Source: Lachnospiraceae bacterium (GTDB lineage Bacteria; Bacillota; Clostridia; Lachnospirales; Lachnospiraceae). From it: 64,000 bases of DNA. The DNA lies in assembly GCA_024681795.1 (NCBI GenBank), contig JAILAD010000005.1:23926-87925 (forward strand), given 5' to 3'. Of this stretch, positions 1,417 to 50,483 are shown one piece after another (the stretch's first letter is position 1; each line of letters opens with the position of its first letter). The position numbers and the translations under genes are program-made. The notes beneath the pieces are model-generated. The model did not search any database, was not told the origin of the DNA, and saw only the letters and a list, made by a program, of their open reading frames with translations.

Positions 1417-1428
1417 GGAAAAAAATAG

Positions 1429-1501
1429 TGGAACCGGTGGGAATCGAACCCATGACCTTCGCGTTGCGAACGCGACGCTCTCCCAACTGAGCTACGATCC
1501 C
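1429..1501 (-). tRNA. tRNA-Ala(CGC)
   Basis: GGGATCG acceptor stem with G3-U70 Ala identity pair, D-arm, anticodon stem TCGCG/CGCGA with loop TTCGCAA, T-loop TTCGATT, discriminator A; CCA not encoded. Confidence 0.96.
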
Positions 1502-1565
1502 GAAAAGTATCAACGGAGTTAATCATAGAATAATTCCGGAGATTCGTCAATAGTAAGAAAAAAGG

Positions 1566-1594
1566 TTTACAATTGGGGAAGTTTGTGTTATTCT
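1566..1594 (+). promoter_or_regulatory. SigA-type promoter of rpsO
   Basis: TTTACA-17 bp-TATTCT with extended -10 TG. Confidence 0.6.
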
Positions 1595-1599
1595 ATATC

Positions 1600-1680
1600 G
1601 GTACGCGACTTTTACGCAGTGAATCGGACACTCCGACCGTTGCTTCGTAAGAGCCGGAAATAAAAAGAATTCAGGAGGAT
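1600..1680 (+). ncRNA. Putative S15 (rpsO) autoregulatory leader
   Basis: Nested stems cttttacg/cgtaagag and tcgga-cac-tccga in the rpsO 5' UTR; S15 leaders are known in Firmicutes. Confidence 0.5.
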
Positions 1681-1686
1681 TAAGAA

Positions 1687-1953
1687 ATGATTTCAAAAGA
1701 AGCAAAACAGGCAATTATCAATGAGTATGCGCGTTCCGCAGGTGATACCGGTTCACCGGAGGTACAGATTGCAATTCTTACCGCAAGAATCAAAGAGATC
1801 ACCGAGCATATGAAGGAGAATCCCAAGGATTTCCATTCCAACCGCGGACTTCTTAAGTTAGTAGGTCAGAGACGTGGTCTTTTGGATTATCTTAAGAAGA
1901 AAGATATCAACAGATATCGTGCTTTAATTGAAAAGCTTGGCTTAAGAAAGTAA
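1687..1953 (+). CDS. rpsO: 30S ribosomal protein S15
   Basis: [13 protein letters not shown]...[23 protein letters not shown]. Confidence 0.99.
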
Positions 1954-1971
1954 TCGTTAAAAACAACTAAA

Positions 1972-2002
1972 AAAGGCGGACAGAAGTTGTCCGCCTTTCT
2001 TT
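1972..2002 (+). terminator. rpsO terminator
   Basis: aaaggcggaca-gaagt-tgtccgccttt followed by T-rich tract. Confidence 0.8.
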
Positions 2003-2035
2003 ACTGTTTGGATTTAAGTGTTTTTCAGGTAACTG

Positions 2036-2201
2036 AGCGGTCTGAACGTTGCCGTTACGGGTTTGTTCCGGCGATGTTGTTTCCGAGACCACTGTAGAAT
2101 TTACAATGATACTGGCTGACCGGGAAAACCGGATGATGAAGCGGATTGTGTATTCTGCAGTAGTTTCGGCAAAGACCGCTTGAAAATAAAAATATTTCAA
2201 G
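2036..2201 (+). ncRNA. Structured pnp 5' leader (three-way junction)
   Basis: Stems 2036-2043/2173-2180, 2045-2054/2069-2078, 2080-2107/2145-2172 and a hairpin at 2179-2201 abutting the RBS. Confidence 0.55.
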
Positions 2202-2216
2202 TAAAGGAGGAATGTT

Positions 2217-4322
2217 ATGAGCAAAGAATTCAAAACATTCAGTTTAGAACTTGCCGGACGTACTTTATCCGTTGACATCGGAAGAGTAGCAGCACAGGCA
2301 AACGGTGCAGCGTTCATGCACTACGGCGATACGACGGTTTTATCCACCGCTACCGCATCCGAGAAACCCAGGGACGGAATCGATTTCTTCCCCTTGAGCG
2401 TTGAGTACGAAGAAAAATTATATTCCGTAGGAAAAATCCCCGGCGGATTCAACAAAAGAGAAGGAAAGGCATCCGAGAATGCCATTCTTACGAGCCGTGT
2501 AATCGACCGCCCGATGCGTCCGCTTTTCCCGAAGGATTATCGTAATGATGTAACGTTAAACAACCTCGTTATGAGCGTGGATCCCGAGTGCCGTCCCGAG
2601 CTTGTTGCAATGCTCGGTTCCGCAATCGCAACATCCATTTCCGATATTCCGTTCTGCGGACCCTGCGCTACCACACAGGTCGGACTGATTAACGGAGAAT
2701 TCGTAATCAACCCGAATCAGGAGCAGTGGAAGAGCGGCGATATGCAGCTTACCGTTGCATCCACTTCCGAGAAGGTTATCATGATTGAAGCGGGTGCAAA
2801 GGAAGTACCCGAAGCAAAAATGATTGAGGCAATTTACAAGGCACACGAGATTAACCAGACCATTATTGCATGGATTAATCAGATTGTTGCGGAAGTAGGA
2901 AAGCCCAAACATGAATATGAATCCTGTGCAATTCCCCAGGAGTTATTCGATGCAATGAAAGCAATCGTAACTCCCGAAGAGATGGAAGTTGCCGTATTCA
3001 CCGATGAGAAGCAGGTTCGTGAGGAGAACATCCGTCAGATTACCGCAAAGCTTGAGGAAGCATTTGCAGATAACGAGGAATGGCTTGCAATTCTCGGCGA
3101 AGCAATTTACCAGTATGAGAAGAAAACCGTACGTAAGATGATTTTAAAGGATCACAAGCGTCCGGACGGCAGAGAGATTACCCAGATCAGACCTCTTGCA
3201 GCAGAGGTTGACATCATCCCCAGAGTACATGGTTCTTCCATGTTCACCAGAGGACAGACACAGATCTGCGACGTATGTACGCTTGCACCTTTATCCGAAA
3301 TGCAGAAAATCGACGGCCTTGACGATAACGAGAAGGCAAAGAGATATATGCATCATTACAACTTCCCCGCATACTCCGTAGGGGAAACCAAAGTAAGCCG
3401 AGGACCGGGACGTCGTGAAATCGGACACGGAGCACTGGCAGAGAGAGCACTTCTTCCGGTACTTCCTTCCGAAGAAGAATTCCCTTACGCAATCCGTTGC
3501 GTATCCGAAACCTTTGAATCAAACGGATCCACTTCCATGGCATCCACCTGTGCATCCTGCATGTCCTTAATGGCTGCCGGTGTACCGATTAAGAGAATGG
3601 TTGCAGGTATTTCCTGCGGTCTTGTTACCGGAGAAACCGATGATGATTTCATTCTGCTTACCGATATCCAGGGTCTCGAAGATTTCTTCGGCGATATGGA
3701 CTTTAAGGTAACCGGTACTACCGAAGGTATTACCGCAATTCAGATGGATATTAAGATTCACGGACTTACCCGTCCCATCGTGGAAGGTGCAATTGCAAGA
3801 TGCCGTGAAGCAAGACTTTATATCATGGATAACTGCATGAAGCCCGCGATTGCAGAACCCAGAAAAGAAGTCGGACCTTATGCTCCGAAGATTATTCAGA
3901 TTCAGATTGATCCCGAGAAAATCGGTGAAGTTGTCGGACAGCGCGGAAAGGTTATCAACGAGATTATTTCCAGATGCGATGTTAAGATTGACATTACCGA
4001 TGACGGTGCGGTTTCCGTATGCGGTACGGAGAAAGCAAATATGGATAAGGCAATCGAGATGATTAAGACGATTGTTACCGAGTTTGAAGAAGGACAGATT
4101 TTCAAGGGCAAGGTAGTATCCATTAAGGAATTCGGTGCTTTCGTGGAATTTGCACCCGGCAAGGAAGGAATGGTTCACATTTCCAAGATTGCCAAAGAGC
4201 GTATCGAGCATGTGGAAGATGTTCTGACTCTGGGAGATGAAGTTACCGTAATCTGCCTGGGCAAGGATAAGATGGGAAGAATGAGCTTCTCCATCAAGGA
4301 TGTTCCCGCGAACAAAAGATAA
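2217..4322 (+). CDS. pnp: Polyribonucleotide nucleotidyltransferase (PNPase)
   Basis: FFPLSVEYEEK, RREIGHG, ESNGSTSMA motifs; KH and S1 domains. Confidence 0.99.
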   Translation: MSKEFKTFSLELAGRTLSVDIGRVAAQANGAAFMHYGDTTVLSTATASEKPRDGIDFFPLSVEYEEKLYSVGKIPGGFNKREGKASENAILTSRVIDRPMRPLFPKDYRNDVTLNNLVMSVDPECRPELVAMLGSAIATSISDIPFCGPCATTQVGLINGEFVINPNQEQWKSGDMQLTVASTSEKVIMIEAGAKEVPEAKMIEAIYKAHEINQTIIAWINQIVAEVGKPKHEYESCAIPQELFDAMKAIVTPEEMEVAVFTDEKQVREENIRQITAKLEEAFADNEEWLAILGEAIYQYEKKTVRKMILKDHKRPDGREITQIRPLAAEVDIIPRVHGSSMFTRGQTQICDVCTLAPLSEMQKIDGLDDNEKAKRYMHHYNFPAYSVGETKVSRGPGRREIGHGALAERALLPVLPSEEEFPYAIRCVSETFESNGSTSMASTCASCMSLMAAGVPIKRMVAGISCGLVTGETDDDFILLTDIQGLEDFFGDMDFKVTGTTEGITAIQMDIKIHGLTRPIVEGAIARCREARLYIMDNCMKPAIAEPRKEVGPYAPKIIQIQIDPEKIGEVVGQRGKVINEIISRCDVKIDITDDGAVSVCGTEKANMDKAIEMIKTIVTEFEEGQIFKGKVVSIKEFGAFVEFAPGKEGMVHISKIAKERIEHVEDVLTLGDEVTVICLGKDKMGRMSFSIKDVPANKR

Positions 4323-42010: not shown

Positions 42011-43954
42011 GTGGATTATAATCAGGAAACAAAATTTATATTCTGCCCGAGATGCGGCGGTATTATGCAGCCTCCGGTCTGCAATATCTGCGGATACGAT
42101 TTAAGGCCTTCACAGGAAGAATTAAACGCCCGCGCGGGAATGCAGCAAAATGCCGGACCGGGAATACCGGGACCGGATCTTACAAATCCGGAAGCGGCGG
42201 GACAAAAGATGCCGGGTGGACAAAATGCACAGAATATGCAGAATCCGGGAGTGCAGAATCCAAACGGACAAAATCTCCCGCCAGTCGGTGCGAATGTACA
42301 GACCCCGAAAAAGAAAAAGAAAATCTGGATTCCGATTGCAATTGCGGGAACCGTGATTTTAATTCTGACGTTGCTCTGCGGACCTTTCGTATCCACACTG
42401 GGAGTTTTCAGAAATTATATCAATACCAGAAAGACAGCGCAGACGAATCCGCCGTCTTCATCCGCAAAACCGAAGCCGTCCCAGCCCAAGTCTGAAGAGG
42501 AATCGGAGCTTCCGGAGAATACGGATTATGTCATGCGGCATTTCGGCAGATTTGACCATCAGGGACTTGATACGGATTTTTACGTGAATATGGCGGACTG
42601 CACGTATACGAGTTCTTCGGGCGTATTCGATCCGTACCTGAATCAGTCCGGGTATGTGGAGACATGGCTCGGATCGGGAGTATTTGATTCCACGCACAGG
42701 AATTATACCGTTGACGAAATGGGACCGGATTATTACGAACCGTTCTGCGATTCGATTGATGAAGTCAGTTATTCGGAACAGTATCAGGTTTCCAGAAAGT
42801 ATTTTTACTATGACGACCTGATGGGAAATTACCGCATTCAGGCAAGCATCGCCTATCCGGAACTTTCGGGTAACATTCCGAATCTGGATGCGTTAAATCA
42901 GGAAATTTACGAACGCTGTGCATCGGATTATCTGAATTATTTAAACGGTTCTTCGCCTTATTCACAGTATGTATTTGAGAAAATCCGTTTTATTGCGGAT
43001 TCCTATATTACGTATAATGACGGAAAGAAGATGAGCATCCTTCTTGACTGTGCCGTTCATACGGATGATTACTGGAACAGCCTGGATTCCTATATTTATG
43101 CAATCAATGTCGATCTGGAAAAGGGAAAGATTATTGAAAATGACCAGATTATTGACATGGACGAAGACTTTGCAAAAAAATTCCGTGAAAGATGCCTGAT
43201 TCAGAACGGCAGCAATTCGGCACTGGATCCGCTGACCGATAAGGAAGTACTGCAGTACTTATCCGAAAAGGAAAACAATATCATGTTCTTTACCCCGCTC
43301 GGCCTTGAAGTCGGCATGCATTATCTTGGAAAGGACGATATTTTATCCAGGGGATGGATGACCGTTACACTCAAATACGGTGAATTTGAAGACCGTCTGA
43401 AAGACGAATCCTTAAAAAATACCGGAAATGCAACCAGAATCAAATCGGATTTAAGATATGCGGATTTAGTCGGCGGATGGACTGAAATTGATCCGGAAGA
43501 GGGAGAAAAAGAAGAGAAGGAAGTCCGCAGCAAGTATCCGAATTACGACTGGAGCGAGCTGACGCTTGAAGAGGCCGTGGAAGAACATAAAAAAGCCGTG
43601 GAAGAAGCGGAAAAGCAGTCCGGAAACGATACTACGCCTTCAAATCCGGACGATCCGGAATGGATGTATGATTATGAGGAACTGGAGAAATACTTCAGTA
43701 ATCCGGATTTGTATAAATCCACTTATGAAGCGGATGAGTATTTCAAATTCCGTAAGGGAGAAGCAAAAGATCAAAAAGAAGAACTGAATTCGGAGGAGAA
43801 GGAAGAAGAATCAGAATTGAGTTCAGAGGACGGTTCCGAAAAAGATTCCGAAGATAAATCGGAAAAAGATTCTGAGAAGAACTCCGAAAATGAGTCGGAG
43901 AATGACTCCGGACAAAAGGACAACTCAAAGAAGAAAGGGGGATTCATTCAATGA
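42011..43954 (+). CDS. Membrane protein: Zn-ribbon, Q/N/P-rich linker, one TM helix, RsiV/PdaC-like (DUF4163/DUF3298-type) external domain, acidic tail
   Basis: CPRC...CNIC; KKKKK before TM IWIPIAIAGTVILILTLL; IAYPEL...LNQEI...ITYNDGKKMSI...INVDLEKGK; SExx repeats at C-terminus. Confidence 0.6.
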   Translation: MDYNQETKFIFCPRCGGIMQPPVCNICGYDLRPSQEELNARAGMQQNAGPGIPGPDLTNPEAAGQKMPGGQNAQNMQNPGVQNPNGQNLPPVGANVQTPKKKKKIWIPIAIAGTVILILTLLCGPFVSTLGVFRNYINTRKTAQTNPPSSSAKPKPSQPKSEEESELPENTDYVMRHFGRFDHQGLDTDFYVNMADCTYTSSSGVFDPYLNQSGYVETWLGSGVFDSTHRNYTVDEMGPDYYEPFCDSIDEVSYSEQYQVSRKYFYYDDLMGNYRIQASIAYPELSGNIPNLDALNQEIYERCASDYLNYLNGSSPYSQYVFEKIRFIADSYITYNDGKKMSILLDCAVHTDDYWNSLDSYIYAINVDLEKGKIIENDQIIDMDEDFAKKFRERCLIQNGSNSALDPLTDKEVLQYLSEKENNIMFFTPLGLEVGMHYLGKDDILSRGWMTVTLKYGEFEDRLKDESLKNTGNATRIKSDLRYADLVGGWTEIDPEEGEKEEKEVRSKYPNYDWSELTLEEAVEEHKKAVEEAEKQSGNDTTPSNPDDPEWMYDYEELEKYFSNPDLYKSTYEADEYFKFRKGEAKDQKEELNSEEKEEESELSSEDGSEKDSEDKSEKDSEKNSENESENDSGQKDNSKKKGGFIQ

Positions 43955-44505
43955 GAGGGAAAGAAAAATGTAAAGCATTAAAGGAAATCCGCAGGCAGAT
44001 TGCATTAAATAACGAGATTGAATATGTCGTCAGTGAATGTTCCCATAAAGGAGAGTGTAAGGGAACCTGTCCGAAATGCGAAGCGGAAGTGCGTTATCTG
44101 GAAAGAGAATTGGAACTTCGAAGAAACCTTGGGAAAAAAGTGGTTCTTGCCGGAATCGGAGTAGGAGTTGCTGCATCCATGGCAGGCTGTACGAATCCGG
44201 TGCAGGATTATGTAATTGATCCGGTTGTCAGTTTTTTTGGCGGAAATATCGGTGCAGACAGGCTTGAAGGAGAAGCGACGTATGCACCGCCGGAAGTCTT
44301 GATGGGAGAGGCTGAACCGCCAATCGAAGTGGACGGCGGAATAGTCGAACCCGCATCCGAATGCGGTTCCGAAGAGATTATAGAACTTGACGGAGACGTT
44401 GAGTATATTCCGGAAGCGGGAGAAATCGTTTCGGAGGAGGAAGAAAATATTTCGGAAGAGGAAGATAATATTCCGGAAGACGGGAATTTAAATCAGGAAG
44501 AATAA
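43951..44505 (+). CDS. Cys-rich N-terminal domain protein with internal lipobox and acidic repeats
   Basis: C7, C30-x5-C36-x3-C40-x2-C43; KKVVLAGIGVGVAASMAGC80; ATGA overlap with upstream stop. Confidence 0.8.
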   Translation: MRGKEKCKALKEIRRQIALNNEIEYVVSECSHKGECKGTCPKCEAEVRYLERELELRRNLGKKVVLAGIGVGVAASMAGCTNPVQDYVIDPVVSFFGGNIGADRLEGEATYAPPEVLMGEAEPPIEVDGGIVEPASECGSEEIIELDGDVEYIPEAGEIVSEEEENISEEEDNIPEDGNLNQEE

Positions 44506-44517
44506 GGAGTCGGAAAA

Positions 44518-45207
44518 ATGTCAGAATCCAAATTAAAGGTTTTTGCTTTAGACAGACTCAGAATGACGACGGACGGTAGCGGAGTGACGACACTCATATG
44601 CGGTATGGGTTGTCCTCTCCGATGCCGTTTTTGTATTAATCCCGGTTCCTGGGATGGTTCGGTAAGCGGAAAAGAATATACAAAAGAAGAACTATATGAA
44701 GCGGTCAAAGCAGACAGCCTTTATTTCCTGACGACGGGAGGCGGGTTGATGTTCGGCGGAGGAGAGCCTCTTCTGCAAAGTGAATTCCTGAAAGAATTCA
44801 TGGAACAGTACAGTTCGTCAGGCTGGAATTTTTATCTGGAAAGTTCCTTAAATGTTCCGAGAAAGAATCTGGAAGACGTAATCCCTTATATCGAAGAATA
44901 CCTGATTGATACGAAGGATATGAATCCCGACAGGTATCATGCGTATACGGACGGAGATTATCAGAGGTTTCTCAATAATCTTTTGTTTTTAAAGGACAGG
45001 GTCGGACAGGAAAAAATCGTTGTCAGGATTCCCAAGATTCCTTTCCTGCATAAAAGCGGGGAAGAGGCGCGTCTGAACGGAGAAAAACTAAAGGAACTCG
45101 GGTTTACCAGGCTTGATTTTCTTACTTATCTGAATCCCGAATCGAGAAAGGATATTTCGGAGACTGCAAGGGAAAATCTCGAACTTCTGGCAAAGCGGGA
45201 TAAATAG
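44518..45207 (+). CDS. Radical SAM enzyme, glycyl-radical (PFL) activase-like
   Basis: DGSGVTTLIC.MGCPLRCRFCINP (CxxxCxxC), FGGGEPLLQ, IDTK. Confidence 0.9.
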   Translation: MSESKLKVFALDRLRMTTDGSGVTTLICGMGCPLRCRFCINPGSWDGSVSGKEYTKEELYEAVKADSLYFLTTGGGLMFGGGEPLLQSEFLKEFMEQYSSSGWNFYLESSLNVPRKNLEDVIPYIEEYLIDTKDMNPDRYHAYTDGDYQRFLNNLLFLKDRVGQEKIVVRIPKIPFLHKSGEEARLNGEKLKELGFTRLDFLTYLNPESRKDISETARENLELLAKRDK

Positions 45208-45367: not shown

Positions 45368-46060
45368 ATGATTTACTCAACAGAAGTCAAGAATATGTGC
45401 CCCGTTACCCAGGGTGTACATCATGGCGCTGCTCCCATCCCCGAAGAGGCGAAATGGGTACAGGCAAAGAAGATTGAGGATATCTCCGGTTACACTCACG
45501 GTGTTGGCTGGTGTGCACCTCAGCAGGGAGCTTGCAAGCTTTCCTTAAACGTAAAAGACGGTATTATCCAGGAAGCATTGGTGGAAACACTCGGATGCTC
45601 CGGTATGACCCATTCCGCAGCTATGGCTGCTGAAATCCTTCCGGGACTTACCATTCTCGAAGCATTGAATACCGACCTTGTTTGCGATGCAATCAATACC
45701 GCAATGAGAGAATTATTCTTACAGATTGTTTACGGCAGAACGCAGTCCGCATTCTCCGAGGACGGACTTCAGATCGGCGCAGGTCTTGAAGATCTCGGAA
45801 AGGGAACCAGAACCATGATCGGTACCACCTACGGTACTTTGGAGAAGGGACCCCGTTATCTGGAACTTACCGATGGATATATCACCAATCTTGCACTTGA
45901 TGAGAATGATGAGATTATCGGTTACAAGTATGTTAACTTTGGCAAGATGATGGACTTCATCAAGAAGGGCGACGATGCTCAGACCGCTCTTGAGAAAGCT
46001 TCCGGACAGTACGGCCGTGTTGCTGATGCAGTGAAGTTAATCGATCCGAGAAAAGAGTAA
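45368..46060 (+). CDS. IscU/NifU-like conserved protein, partner of GGGtGRT
   Basis: GWCAPQQGACKLSL, LGCSGMTHS, DLVCDAIN; directly upstream of GGGtGRT gene. Confidence 0.75.
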   Translation: MIYSTEVKNMCPVTQGVHHGAAPIPEEAKWVQAKKIEDISGYTHGVGWCAPQQGACKLSLNVKDGIIQEALVETLGCSGMTHSAAMAAEILPGLTILEALNTDLVCDAINTAMRELFLQIVYGRTQSAFSEDGLQIGAGLEDLGKGTRTMIGTTYGTLEKGPRYLELTDGYITNLALDENDEIIGYKYVNFGKMMDFIKKGDDAQTALEKASGQYGRVADAVKLIDPRKE

Positions 46061-46080
46061 GAAAGGGAGGACAAATCATT

Positions 46081-47100
46081 ATGGCATTATTTGAATCATA
46101 TGAAAGAAGAGAGCCTCAGATTCTTGCTTGCTTAAAGGAGTACGGCATCTCTTCCATTGAAGAGTGTAAGGATATCTGCGATGCTGCAGGTATTGATGTT
46201 TATCATTTAATCGAGGGCATTCAGCCCATCTGTTTTGAAAATGCAAAATGGGCATACACCGTAGGTGCTGCCATTGCAATCAAGAAAAATTGCCGCAAGG
46301 CTGCTGACGCTGCAGCTGCAATCGGTATCGGACTTCAGGCATTCTGCATTCCCGGTTCCGTAGCTGACCGTCGTAAAGTAGGTCTCGGACATGGTAACCT
46401 TGGAAAAATGCTTCTGGAAGAAGACACCGAGTGCTTCGCATTCCTTGCAGGACATGAGTCCTTCGCAGCAGCTGAAGGTGCAATCGGTATCGCAGAGAAA
46501 GCAAACAAAGTTCGTCAGAAACCGCTTCGCGTAATCCTTAACGGTCTCGGAAAAGATGCTGCACAGATTATTTCCCGTATCAACGGATTTACCTATGTAG
46601 AAACCAAATACAATTACTTCACCGGCGAGGTTGAGGAAGTGTTTAGAAAATGCTACAGCAAAGATCCCGAGTCACCCCGTGCAAAGGTTAACTGCTATGG
46701 TGCAAACGATGTTCAGGAAGGTGTTGCAATCATGTGGAAAGAGAACGTTGATGTTTCCATTACCGGTAACTCCACCAACCCGACCAGATTCCAGCATCCC
46801 GTTGCAGGTACCTACAAGAAAGAGCGCGTAGAAGCAGGAAAGAAGTACTTCTCCGTTGCATCCGGCGGCGGTACCGGACGTACCCTTCACCCGGATAACA
46901 TGGCTGCAGGTCCTGCATCCTACGGTATGACCGATACCATGGGACGTATGCATTCCGATGCACAGTTCGCAGGTTCCTCATCCGTTCCCGCTCACGTAGA
47001 AATGATGGGTCTCATCGGTGCAGGTAACAACCCGATGGTTGGTATGACCGTTTCTACTGCAGTTTCCATCGAAGAAGCTGCAAAGGCAGGAAAGTTTTAA
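46081..47100 (+). CDS. GGGtGRT family protein (function unknown)
   Basis: Signature SVASGGGTGRTLHPDN; MALFESYERR N-terminus. Confidence 0.92.
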   Translation: MALFESYERREPQILACLKEYGISSIEECKDICDAAGIDVYHLIEGIQPICFENAKWAYTVGAAIAIKKNCRKAADAAAAIGIGLQAFCIPGSVADRRKVGLGHGNLGKMLLEEDTECFAFLAGHESFAAAEGAIGIAEKANKVRQKPLRVILNGLGKDAAQIISRINGFTYVETKYNYFTGEVEEVFRKCYSKDPESPRAKVNCYGANDVQEGVAIMWKENVDVSITGNSTNPTRFQHPVAGTYKKERVEAGKKYFSVASGGGTGRTLHPDNMAAGPASYGMTDTMGRMHSDAQFAGSSSVPAHVEMMGLIGAGNNPMVGMTVSTAVSIEEAAKAGKF

Positions 47101-47342: not shown

Positions 47343-48686
47343 ATGAAGAAAAAAGTGCTTCAGATGATCGGTGTTTTAACGGCGACAGTAATGATTGCGG
47401 GATGTACGAATCCGGGAAAGATACCTGCGGTTACGGGAAATCCGGACTCTGAAATACCGGTAACTTCCGGTACGTTAAGCGGAGAAAGTGTGAATCTTAC
47501 GGAAGGGAGAACGGGGATTGCCGCAAGAAACGTATATCCGACCGATGAGGAGACCTCGGCTCTGTCCGGTGCAGCATTTGCGCTGTTTGAAGAAGTGATG
47601 GACGAAAAAGAAGGAGAGAATGTTCTGCTTTCTCCGGTTTCAATTGATTTTGCACTCGGTATGACGGAAAACGGTGCGGCCGGAAATACGCTTGCACAGA
47701 TGGAAGAGACGGTAAACGGAGGCATCTCGGGTGAAAAACTGAATCCGATTATGAAACTTTTATCCGAACGTTTTATGAATGCCGCAGAGGTGAAATGGAA
47801 CGTGGCGAATTCCGTTTGGTTTAAAAACGACGATCAGATACAGATGAAGATGAAGGACGATTTTCTCGATCAGACGGTCGGTTATTATGATGCGGATGTA
47901 TATCTTTCGCCCTTTGATAACCGGACGATATCGGATATTAACAACTGGGTGAGTCTGGAAACGGACGGAATGATTACGGATGTTCTGGATTCCATTGACC
48001 CGAATACGATTATGTATCTGATCAATGCGATATCCTTTGACGGAGAGTGGGCAACAGAGTATGAAGAAGATAAAATTACGGAAGATCGTGAATTCCGTAA
48101 TCTTGACGGAAGTATTTCCAAAGTAACGATGCTTGGAAGCACGGAAAGCAGGTATTTTGAAATTGCCGGAGGAGAAGGATTTATCAAACCCTATAAGGGG
48201 CTTGAGTATTCATTTGTCGGAATTCTTCCCGGCGAAGGAGAGACTCCGGAATCCCTGATTGCAAAGATGAATCAGTCGAATACGGATTTTGCAAATGCCG
48301 TAAAGAACGCGGAAAATACGGAAGTAAAAGTGCAGATGCCGGAGTTTTCCTGTGATTTTGAAACGGAATTAAGTGATACATACAAAAAAATGGGTATGAC
48401 GGAACCGTTCAGTGAAACGGATGCTGATTTTTCGAGAATGCTGGAATCCACGGACGGAAGCCTTTTTGAATGCTGGATTGGCAGTATTATTCATAAAACG
48501 CATATCGACGTGGATCGAAAGGGTACCAAAGCCGCTGCGGTTACGGTTGTCGAAATGCGTTACAAAAATGCGGTTTCCTTTGATGAATCGAAAACCATTA
48601 TACTGAACCGGCCGTTTGTTTATGCGATTGTTGAGAATGAGACAGGTCTTCCGGTATTTCTGGGCTGTGTGAATAATATGGAATAA
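47343..48686 (+). CDS. Serpin-family lipoprotein (serpin 1)
   Basis: Lipobox IAGC21; NVLLSP.S, LINAISFDGEW, HKTHIDVDRKGTKAAAVT, NRPFVYAI..ETG.PVFLG.V. Confidence 0.95.
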   Translation: MKKKVLQMIGVLTATVMIAGCTNPGKIPAVTGNPDSEIPVTSGTLSGESVNLTEGRTGIAARNVYPTDEETSALSGAAFALFEEVMDEKEGENVLLSPVSIDFALGMTENGAAGNTLAQMEETVNGGISGEKLNPIMKLLSERFMNAAEVKWNVANSVWFKNDDQIQMKMKDDFLDQTVGYYDADVYLSPFDNRTISDINNWVSLETDGMITDVLDSIDPNTIMYLINAISFDGEWATEYEEDKITEDREFRNLDGSISKVTMLGSTESRYFEIAGGEGFIKPYKGLEYSFVGILPGEGETPESLIAKMNQSNTDFANAVKNAENTEVKVQMPEFSCDFETELSDTYKKMGMTEPFSETDADFSRMLESTDGSLFECWIGSIIHKTHIDVDRKGTKAAAVTVVEMRYKNAVSFDESKTIILNRPFVYAIVENETGLPVFLGCVNNME

Positions 48687-48788: not shown

Positions 48789-50483
48789 ATGGAAATGGAC
48801 AAAGACAGACTCTGGAAATATTATCAACTCATGGAACAGATTACGGACATGACCTGCAGACTGGAGGATTTCGACAGGGAAGAGTTCGTTAATCTGCTTT
48901 CGCAGTTTTGCGAGTTGTTCCGTATTGCCAAAGGTGTTACGGAATTCTATACGAATCGTCGAAACGAGGCGGAAAAAAAGGGCGAAATTCTTGTTGATTT
49001 CGATAACGGCAGGGGTGAAATCCCGGTTATTTACAGAAGAGTCAGCCCTCCGTCCGGAGTGGTTATAATCGGTACGCTTTATATGGCAAAGGATGACGAA
49101 CCGCTTTCCGATGAGGAAAAAGAGAAAGTCGATATGGTTTACCGGCTTTTAATGAGCTTTATCGCGAGAAACCGGCTTCAGAGAACGGTTTTGCAGTTTG
49201 CGTTTACGGATGAAGACGGATTTGCAAATCGTCGTTCCATGATGAATTTTATAGATGAAAAAATAGTCAAAGGCGAACAGTACGGAAATATTGCAGCATG
49301 CATTAACCTGAAGAATTTCAACGCAATCAACCAGGAAGTCGGCAGAAAAAAAGGCGACTATATTTTAAGAAGTGTTTACGAGTATTTGAAAAACGAAATC
49401 GGAGAAGACGGTCACATCAGCCGTCTCGGCGGCGATAATTTTATTCTGTTTTTCCGGAATGAATTAAGGGATAAGATTCTGGAAAGCTTTTCGGGAATTC
49501 CCGTTGAATATGATCCGGTGGAACATAAAAAAATAATTGTCTCCGCAAGGGCCGGAGTATTTGTCGTTACAAAAGAAACCGAACTTACCGTTCCCGGTCA
49601 GATAATGGAGCGGATTTATCCTGCGGTTCAGATTGCAAGACAGAGCGGACAGGATATTGTATTTTATGACGGAAAAATAATTGAAATGCGGGAACATGTT
49701 GCAAAGGTCCGGAAGGATTTTGCACGGGGATTGGAAAAGAAGGAAATAGTGGCATTTTATCAGCCGAAGGTAGATGTCAATACCGGAAAGATTGTCGGTG
49801 CGGAGGCTCTTTGCAGATGGTTCCGAAACGGTCAGACGGTGATGCCGATGGAATTCATTCCGATTCTGGAAAGAAGCATGGATATCTGCAGGCTTGATTT
49901 TTTCATGTTTGAGACGGTATGTGCGGATATCAGAAGATGGCTGGATGAAGGAAGAACGGTTCCGCGTATTTCCGTGAATTTTTCCAGAAAACACCTGAAT
50001 AATCCGGATTTGCTCGGCCGTATCCTGGAGATTATAAACCGTTATGAAATCAGGCGAAAATATCTTGAAATTGAGCTGACCGAGACAACCACGGATGTGG
50101 AATTCAATCAGTTAAACCGTATTGTAACGGGACTTCACAGGGAAGGAATCAGTGCTTCCGTGGATGATTTCGGAAACGGCTATTCGTCTCTTAACTTAAT
50201 CCGTTCGATTCCCTGGGATGTCATAAAGATTGACCGTTCGCTTCTTCCGACGGATTCCGACAACGAGGAGGGAATCACAAACCGGATGTATAGTCACGTT
50301 GTTTCCATGGCGACGGATATCGGCTTAAAATGTATAACGGAGGGCGTGGAGACTAAAAGACAGGTTGATATTTTAAGAAAAAATAACTGCCCGGTTGCAC
50401 AGGGATTCTATTTTGACAAACCTCTCCCTGCGGAGACGTTTGAAAAACTTCTGGAGGGAACGCCGTATCGGGATAAAATATAA
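48789..50483 (+). CDS. GGDEF(degenerate)-EAL protein, likely c-di-GMP phosphodiesterase
   Basis: GGDNF instead of GGDEF; FYQPKV, AEALCRW, ELTE, DDFGNGYSS, EGVET, QGFYF. Confidence 0.9.
   Translation: MEMDKDRLWKYYQLMEQITDMTCRLEDFDREEFVNLLSQFCELFRIAKGVTEFYTNRRNEAEKKGEILVDFDNGRGEIPVIYRRVSPPSGVVIIGTLYMAKDDEPLSDEEKEKVDMVYRLLMSFIARNRLQRTVLQFAFTDEDGFANRRSMMNFIDEKIVKGEQYGNIAACINLKNFNAINQEVGRKKGDYILRSVYEYLKNEIGEDGHISRLGGDNFILFFRNELRDKILESFSGIPVEYDPVEHKKIIVSARAGVFVVTKETELTVPGQIMERIYPAVQIARQSGQDIVFYDGKIIEMREHVAKVRKDFARGLEKKEIVAFYQPKVDVNTGKIVGAEALCRWFRNGQTVMPMEFIPILERSMDICRLDFFMFETVCADIRRWLDEGRTVPRISVNFSRKHLNNPDLLGRILEIINRYEIRRKYLEIELTETTTDVEFNQLNRIVTGLHREGISASVDDFGNGYSSLNLIRSIPWDVIKIDRSLLPTDSDNEEGITNRMYSHVVSMATDIGLKCITEGVETKRQVDILRKNNCPVAQGFYFDKPLPAETFEKLLEGTPYRDKI

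Follow-up and report, generated by a model that had tools for sequence, protein, structure and literature searches.

What does a radical S-adenosylmethionine (SAM) enzyme of the activase type act on when the gene beside it encodes a small cysteine-rich protein and not a glycyl-radical enzyme (GRE)? The question is raised by a locus in a 64,000-nucleotide stretch of a Lachnospiraceae bacterium genome (GenBank assembly GCA_024681795.1, contig JAILAD010000005.1, positions 23,926 to 87,925 of the forward strand), called the window below. A first reading, made from the sequence only, had picked out a 184-amino-acid (aa) protein with the pattern C7...C30-x5-C36-x3-C40-x2-C43, encoded 12 bp before a 229-aa enzyme with CxxxCxxC and GGEP motifs, and had taken the two to co-occur in Bacteroidales and Clostridia with no function assigned. 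The open reading frames (ORFs) and motifs are exactly as it described, and the co-occurrence is strong across Bacillota and Bacteroidota. Its proposal of a new protein-modification or redox-signalling system, with the Cys domain as an Fe-S/Zn recognition element or as a substrate of the enzyme, is supported in part, for the pairing, and its chemistry stays hypothetical. What it missed is the anatomy of the partner, in which the cysteine pattern belongs to an N-terminal domain, here the head, that stands before an export signal, and the varied passengers that follow this signal. We found that the head and the enzyme form a dedicated two-gene module and that their pairing is real. The same pairing recurs in thousands of anaerobes of the gut and the rumen, so that the enzyme has the appearance of one half of a system not yet described, an enzyme and its partner, rather than of an activase gone astray. 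The parts of the module are the following.

43951..44505, + strand: 184-aa partner protein, predicted Cys-headed lipoprotein precursor (ORF listing)
43951..44130, + strand: head domain (aa 1-60), predicted to consist of two helices with a Cys loop between them (alignments, AlphaFold2 (AF2) model)
44038..44079, + strand: C30-x5-C36-x-G38-x-C40-x2-C43 loop, candidate metal site and candidate hydrogen-abstraction site (sequence, conservation)
44131..44190, + strand: basic stretch, hydrophobic segment and lipobox-like S-M-A-G-C80 after the head (sequence)
44191..44502, + strand: acidic Pro/Glu-rich tail with three copies of [LIV]-x-G-[DE]-[VIA] (sequence)
44263-44277, + strand: first copy of this tail motif, LEGEA
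44299-44313, + strand: second copy, LMGEA
44386-44400, + strand: third copy, LDGDV
44503-44508, + strand: AAGGAG ribosome-binding site of the enzyme gene, across the TAA stop of the partner gene (sequence)
44506..44517, + strand: 12-nt spacer between the partner and enzyme genes (sequence)
44518..45207, + strand: 229-aa enzyme of a distinct PflA-like radical SAM subfamily without a name (profile scores, PflA likeness)
44554..44583, + strand: R13-L-R15-x-x-T-D19-G-x-G22 loop of the enzyme, equivalent to PflA loop 10-20 (invariant columns, PflA alignment)
44611..44634, + strand: C32-x3-C36-x2-C39 radical SAM cluster motif, then the invariant N41 (invariant columns, PflA alignment)

Pairing of the head and the enzyme

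Loci were gathered by alignment-based scans (a single-protein scan gave only 4), which yielded an enzyme-anchored set of 82 loci from named genomes and a head-anchored set of 79. A head ORF is directly adjacent to the enzyme gene in 76 of the 82 loci, on the same strand in nearly all of them, and an enzyme scoring at least 208 bits on the family hidden Markov model is adjacent to the head gene in 71 of the 79. When the two genes are not adjacent, the missing partner was located at another site of that genome in 7 of 8 and in 5 of 6 cases for the two sets. The same association was observed at the level of genomes, in an even sample of 151 genomes representing 150 genera of the window's family: eight carry both genes, always adjacent, one carries the head only, none carries the enzyme only, and 142 carry neither (Fisher p = 1.6e-12). 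In the head-only genome, the head gene lies 533 nt from a contig end. These counts answer an objection that the sequence-only reading had raised against itself, namely that the two proteins might not co-occur across genomes.

The module is patchily distributed, being found in about 6% of the genera, and looks like an accessory unit. Its hosts are Lachnospiraceae, Oscillospiraceae, Prevotella/Segatella, Muribaculaceae, and Bacteroides of the gut, the rumen, and the mouth. The 184-aa protein has more than 3,200 homologous clusters at 90% identity, the head is present in some 3,000 clusters at 50% identity, and an exhaustive search of 1.84 billion proteins with the head profile returned 2,967 matching representatives. 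Among the best 150 of these matches, the head starts within residues 1-3 in about 90%. One copy of the module (locus L012, 4351-5693) is on a contig labelled as an uncultured Methanobacteriaceae archaeon, an origin that its neighbour genes did not confirm; the head protein encoded there has no membrane segment.

The head gene usually comes first in Bacillota, whereas the Bacteroidales usually have one to five head genes after the enzyme gene. A single enzyme can be found alongside up to 5-6 head genes per genome, a ratio more in keeping with an enzyme and its substrates than with a fixed subunit. The largest array, six tandem head genes in Prevotella conceptionensis (L076, G014:C3:209981-213706), is located away from the sole enzyme gene of that genome.

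The two proteins are also found fused. In L051, the enzyme and then the head form one 291-aa frame with nothing further. In L055, from a Muribaculaceae genome (4974-6920), the enzyme and the head are followed by Pro-rich repeats and a HIRAN domain; this HIRAN part weakly matches the PADLOC candidate PDC-M03B. The opposite order is found in Lachnospiraceae, where L183 (498 aa, 1452-2945) and L184 (556 aa, 1425-3092) consist of an N-terminal domain, the head, and the enzyme, and L185 (2307-3323) has the same N-terminal domain and head followed by a separate enzyme gene. This N-terminal domain, of about 230-290 aa in the three genomes, has no Pfam match. Finally, P0241 carries two heads in tandem. 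Because L051, L055, L183, L184, L185, and P0241 are all devoid of a membrane segment, it appears that head and enzyme act together on the cytoplasmic side and that export is dispensable for this. The AF2 model of L051 has a predicted local distance difference test score (pLDDT) of 91.6 and a predicted template-modelling score (pTM) of 0.88 (pLDDT, pTM, and secondary structure were the measures used to assess all AF2 models). Within this fusion the head reaches a pLDDT of 85-96, against 79-90 when modelled alone, which suggests that it docks in a defined way on the enzyme.

Neither protein is named by a specific curated family: the head falls in no family, and the enzyme only in the generic Radical_SAM family. 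Full-text literature searches returned no paper describing the enzyme-head pair, and a 2026 review on GREs, searched by keyword, gave no match. The module is common in anaerobes of the gut, the rumen, and the mouth, yet no specific curated family, structure, or paper was found for it.

The enzyme, the head, and the export signal

The enzyme carries the motifs GC32PLRC36RFC39 and G80GGEP84 and belongs to the Radical_SAM family (PF04055), with 54.9 bits for a gathering cut-off of 29.5 and the CX3CX2C motif in place. Pfam yields only Radical_SAM and Fer4_12 for this protein, so it lacks a SPASM extension, as had been claimed. It is not a SPASM/twitch maturase either by its length of 229 aa or by the maturase models, which score at most 17.5 bits. 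The best curated model is TIGR02494, the PFLE_PFLC family of activases that includes CutD, HpdA, BssD, and their relatives, with 120.7 bits for a cut-off of 174.35. The models for PflA (TIGR02493, 96.6 bits for 231.75), NrdG2 (TIGR02495, 43.1 bits for 131.15), and TIGR02491 (31.2 bits for 126.1) also stay below their cut-offs. The TIGR02494 match is split, and its main stretch covers profile positions 99-240. The N-terminal third of the profile, which we take to hold the ferredoxin-like two-cluster insert, is left unmatched. The enzyme therefore differs from the insert-bearing GRE activases both by its score and by the apparent absence of the insert. From these profile scores, it is a PflA-like enzyme that stands outside every curated activase family.

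PflA, which in E. coli has PflB and GrcA as protein substrates, is among the closest known systems. With the family profile, E. coli PflA (3C8F/3CB8) comes out as the best match among solved structures, with E 5e-26 for its residues 14-208, and when a relative modelled with AF2 is superposed on it, the template-modelling (TM) score is 0.70-0.73. The two enzymes share the compact single-domain radical SAM fold and the CX3CX2C and GGE motifs, and each is paired with a dedicated protein partner encoded alongside. The likeness extends to the residues that handle the substrate. Indeed, Asp16 and Asn38 of PflA are the hydrogen-bonding anchors of the Gly734 substrate loop (PMC9326890). They align with D19 and N41 of the module enzyme, both invariant in 27 diverse family members, and R13, R15, D19, and G22 are invariant across the family alignment. 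With these anchors conserved, the enzyme keeps the apparatus needed to hold a polypeptide loop over SAM.

However, the module differs from PflA in its partner. This partner is a 60-residue five-Cys helical hairpin, as predicted, with no Gly_radical domain (PF01228) by Pfam and no RVxG[FWY]-type glycine motif in its sequence; it precedes an export signal, and several such partners may share one enzyme. The enzyme itself has a conserved C-terminal extension of the Lachnospiraceae type (aa 196-229, 45104-45207; NP-x-x-RK-x-IS-x-x-A-x-x-N) that is absent from the shorter forms of about 205 aa, including those of Bacteroidales.

We also looked for a GRE that this enzyme might activate. The sequence-only reading had seen none in the window, and this holds for the whole source genome (2.75 Mb, 93% complete), which has neither a Gly_radical nor a PFL-like (pyruvate formate-lyase-like, PF02901) domain. 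The module is likewise present, and PF01228 absent, in a second genome of this genus that is 100% complete. The source genome does encode one anaerobic ribonucleotide reductase NrdD (812-aa frame, C50:31583-34018), with no activase beside it. An NrdG2 is encoded on another contig (ORF C54:78155-78952), with 195.6 bits on TIGR02495, above the cut-off. With no PFL-type GRE present and NrdD provided with its own NrdG2, no alternative GRE substrate is on offer, and the module enzyme is not an activase that serves a GRE from another locus, which is the other outcome that the sequence-only reading had set against its proposal. In the other seven genomes of the family that carry the head, GREs are present, but they lie on different contigs or, where a contig is shared, at a distance of over 80 kb from it. 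Two further features of these source-genome genes were observed: the NrdD frame runs about 110 residues past the NRDD domain match, in a part that looks thioredoxin- or glutaredoxin-like by eye, and the NrdG2 gene adjoins a PflX-like radical SAM gene.

The partner protein reads MRGKEKC7...EC30SHKGEC36KGTC40PKC43EAE in its head, and the loop holds both a CX3CX2C spacing and the best-conserved glycine, G38. In an alignment of 46 heads, G3, C7, L10, R14, A18, N21, C30, C36, G38, C40, C43, and L54 are invariant, although G3, N21, C36, and L54 differ in rare or divergent members; C7, L10, R14, A18, C30, C36, G38, C40, and C43 are invariant columns in the 46- and 95-sequence alignments. Among the divergent and fused forms examined, G38 is kept in L051, L055, L080, L184-L186, and both P0241 heads, and is a Cys only in L183. 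G3 was also considered as the conserved glycine and rejected, as it is absent from L080, L186, and both P0241 heads. The head is better conserved than the enzyme, with a mean pairwise identity of 61% versus 48%, and better than the passengers.

The AF2 model of the head alone predicts a helix (residues 3-20), a loop (21-40), and a second helix (41-59) with a pLDDT of 83.7. No relative was found in the PDB by fold (best E 1.4, TM score below 0.4) or by sequence, where the best match, anti-TRAP, is not significant (E 0.34). The 184-aa protein has no match among Pfam, NCBIfam (E <= 0.01), or PADLOC models; with the PADLOC defence models, the enzyme matched no specific system and only weakly resembled pVip (E 0.002), as radical SAM proteins do in general.

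After the head, a hydrophobic segment ends in ...VGVAASMAGC80, which fits the lipobox pattern ([LVI..][AST..][GAS]C), and by this pattern the 184-aa protein would be a lipoprotein-type precursor. Of 363 proteins in the family, 259 combine such a segment with a lipobox pattern, 86 show an AxA-like site, and 9 are devoid of any hydrophobic segment. The head would thus replace the short n-region of a signal peptide and remain cytoplasmic, since the usual topology of signal peptides places the n-region inside. The passengers vary: in Lachnospiraceae, they are acidic Pro/Glu-rich tails that belong to no Pfam family, and in a set of 95 proteins, mostly from Bacteroidales, the same search found TonB_C in 36 and CarboxypepD_reg in 12. 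The partner in the window has no TonB_C domain (PF03544).

The topology of these precursors, in which an N-terminal Cys-rich module is joined through a single hydrophobic segment to a part outside the cytoplasm, is similar to that of the zf-HC2/ZAS anti-sigma factors, whose N-terminal cytoplasmic module is Cys/His-rich, and of other single-pass proteins that have a zinc module in the cytoplasm, and the head in the window does contain H32-x3-C36-x3-C40-x2-C43. However, the head has no Pfam match at E <= 0.01, H32 is not conserved, no sigma factor is found among the recurrent neighbours of the module, and a lipobox or an AxA-like site closes the hydrophobic segment.

Possible substrates of the enzyme

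The reading that we favor, tentatively and with a little less than an even chance of being right, is that of an enzyme-substrate pair in which the PflA-type enzyme abstracts a hydrogen from the C36-x-G38-x-C40 loop of the head before or at export. It builds on the gene pairing, the co-occurrence in genomes, the fusions, the conserved residues, the absence of another GRE-type substrate, and the PflA-like fold. In this scheme, the precursor would carry a folded, probably metal-binding, 60-residue five-Cys head in place of an n-region, held on the cytoplasmic side. The enzyme, a stripped-down PflA-type protein, would dock on this head and, after the reductive cleavage of SAM, take a hydrogen from a backbone C-alpha in the loop. 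Judging from conservation, G38 is the most likely site, because it is the best-conserved glycine and lies between C36 and C40. The product might be a radical stored on the protein, a single covalent alteration (for instance a cross-link), or a cleavage, arising before or during the export of the precursor and the cleavage of its signal.

Several observations weigh against this enzyme-substrate pair. With its 60 residues, the domain would hardly be large enough to protect a glycyl radical that is stable. G38 itself is a Cys in the fused variant L183, and C36 is substituted in two members. The motif in the tail, [LIV]xG[DE][VI], offers another glycine target, and the CX3CX2C spacing of the head would also suit an Fe-S redox partner. 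Finally, the identity matrices of the enzymes and their nearest heads are correlated (r = 0.60, a value reached by 0/999 permutations), but this mirror-tree correlation may reflect only shared phylogeny.

It is also possible, though on balance unlikely, that the head is only a leader or recognition tag and that the enzyme modifies the passenger beyond the signal before export, for example at the tail motifs. Signal-peptidase cleavage would then take off the head and the signal together, as in the removal of the leader from RiPPs (peptides made on ribosomes and modified after translation) with long protein-like leaders. The tail motif speaks for such a role: it occurs 135 times where 31 occurrences are expected from shuffled tails (4.3-fold), often continues as x-x-P, and is found in 74 of the 95 proteins, in both phyla, and even in forms with no membrane segment (L014, L055, and L061). 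The conservation of the head, which exceeds that of the enzyme and the passengers, and the use of one enzyme with many head genes and varied passengers also agree with it. In the RiPP and maturase systems (NHLP/Nif11-type leaders, SCIFF, QhpD-QhpC), one radical SAM enzyme likewise serves many precursors with a common leader, and here the enzyme stands beside 1-6 proteins with a conserved N-terminal module and variable C-terminal parts. However, the tail is entirely absent from L051, and in L183 and L184 the head lies between the N-terminal domain and the enzyme, again with no tail. The motif is also absent from 21 of the 95 proteins, and any modification of the tail would need to come before Sec export. 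The module enzyme differs from the RiPP enzymes in having neither SPASM/twitch nor a RiPP recognition element (RRE)-like domain, its "leader" is a Cys5 domain, predicted to be folded, that precedes a Sec or lipoprotein signal, and in place of short core peptides its passengers are whole domains or acidic tails of some length.

We consider it less likely still that the head serves as an accessory subunit with Fe-S (or Zn), a membrane-tethered electron donor or adaptor that would reduce the enzyme or position it at the membrane, the enzyme itself having some different target, for example a lipid, a small molecule, or a further protein. The CX3CX2C spacing and the two further invariant cysteines would fit such a subunit, as would the fusions in both orders. 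The enzyme also appears to lack the ferredoxin-like insert of the larger GRE activases, and one may speculate that a head that binds Fe-S would provide cysteines to the enzyme in trans. However, up to six head genes per enzyme and tandem heads are unusual for a fixed subunit, a redox subunit has no reason to precede the export signals of unrelated passengers, and the residues that anchor the peptide in PflA are retained. Nor is there a third conserved gene that could provide a substrate or a pathway partner, as the neighbours (recA, recX, cinA, ftsY, FTCD, and DUF5723) show clade-level synteny only. The last explanation, in which an ordinary activase would serve NrdD or a GRE that the assembly does not contain and the Cys protein would be an unrelated neighbour, is close to excluded. 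GRE activases are the best family matches, the genome is only 93% complete, and GREs are encoded elsewhere in 7/8 other module-bearing genomes. Against this, the enzyme falls below all curated activase cut-offs, a true NrdG2 is found on another contig, the complete genome of the same genus keeps the module with no PF01228, and adjacency, co-occurrence, and fusion to the head are near-universal.

A bolder and quite doubtful extension of the enzyme-substrate pair is that the Cys5 head is a new N-terminal processing or sensing module. As a folded, metal-binding addition to Sec and lipoprotein signals, it would be armed by the minimal PflA-type enzyme with a backbone (glycyl-type) radical or a radical-derived cross-link in its C36-x-G38-x-C40 loop, and would then be the smallest protein-radical carrier or substrate known. 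Through it, a set of envelope proteins in gut anaerobes could be exported, cleaved, or otherwise directed according to the anaerobic and redox state inside the cell; a break of the backbone set off by oxygen at the radical site, for instance, could serve as a fuse. A PflA-type enzyme with a protein partner that is not a GRE would broaden the known roles of "activases", and a folded Cys domain before export signals would be a novel feature of bacterial pre-proteins. As the Bacteroidales clients include TonB_C and CarboxypepD_reg proteins, the module may have a part in how dominant gut species take up nutrients. Because it comprises just two genes and a 60-residue substrate candidate, the key experiments should be simple.

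Genes around the module

In the window, the module genes are part of a tight array of three genes, the first of which is the following.

42011..43954, + strand: 647-aa membrane protein (ORF listing)

The TGA stop of this gene overlaps the ATG start of the 184-aa gene (ATGA), and a pattern scan of the + strand between the partner and enzyme genes gave no promoter or terminator pattern. In the 647-aa protein, a zinc ribbon (CPRC...CNIC) stands at the N-terminus and an acidic repeat of the SEKDSE type at the C-terminus; it also has a stretch of low complexity rich in Gln/Asn/Pro, a single membrane segment, and a large domain, and no Pfam family matches the protein, this domain included. It was rejected as a core component: its homologues are found upstream only in about ten closely related Lachnospiraceae loci, between cinA and the module, and it is therefore clade-specific context.

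The recurrent neighbours were surveyed by BLAST clustering of the neighbour ORFs and a Pfam scan of the cluster representatives. They are housekeeping genes (cinA, pgsA, recA, recX, ftsY, and FTCD) or clade-specific genes, each present in at most 14 of 137 non-redundant loci, which amounts to clade-level synteny only. No third core gene, sigma factor, or transporter was found among them. In one Bacteroidales clade, a 508-aa protein with no Pfam family and a 474-aa DUF5723 protein are always encoded before the enzyme gene; this pair lies about 3 kb upstream in L016, L018, L021, L023, L030, L035, L038, L133, L148, and others.

Downstream of the enzyme gene, after a 160-nt gap, positions 45368-47100 encode an IscU-like protein (a weak NifU_N match, below the cut-off) and then a GGGtGRT protein (PF14057, E 1e-188). 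These genes were rejected as partners, as the gap separates them from the module and they are kept downstream of it in only 2-3 near relatives; they form a separate two-gene unit. Further along, a serpin (47343-48686; PF00079, E 3.5e-76) has a lipoprotein-like N-terminus (MIAGC), and a 564-aa ORF (48789-50483) resembles, by eye, cyclic-di-GMP proteins of the GGDEF-EAL type.

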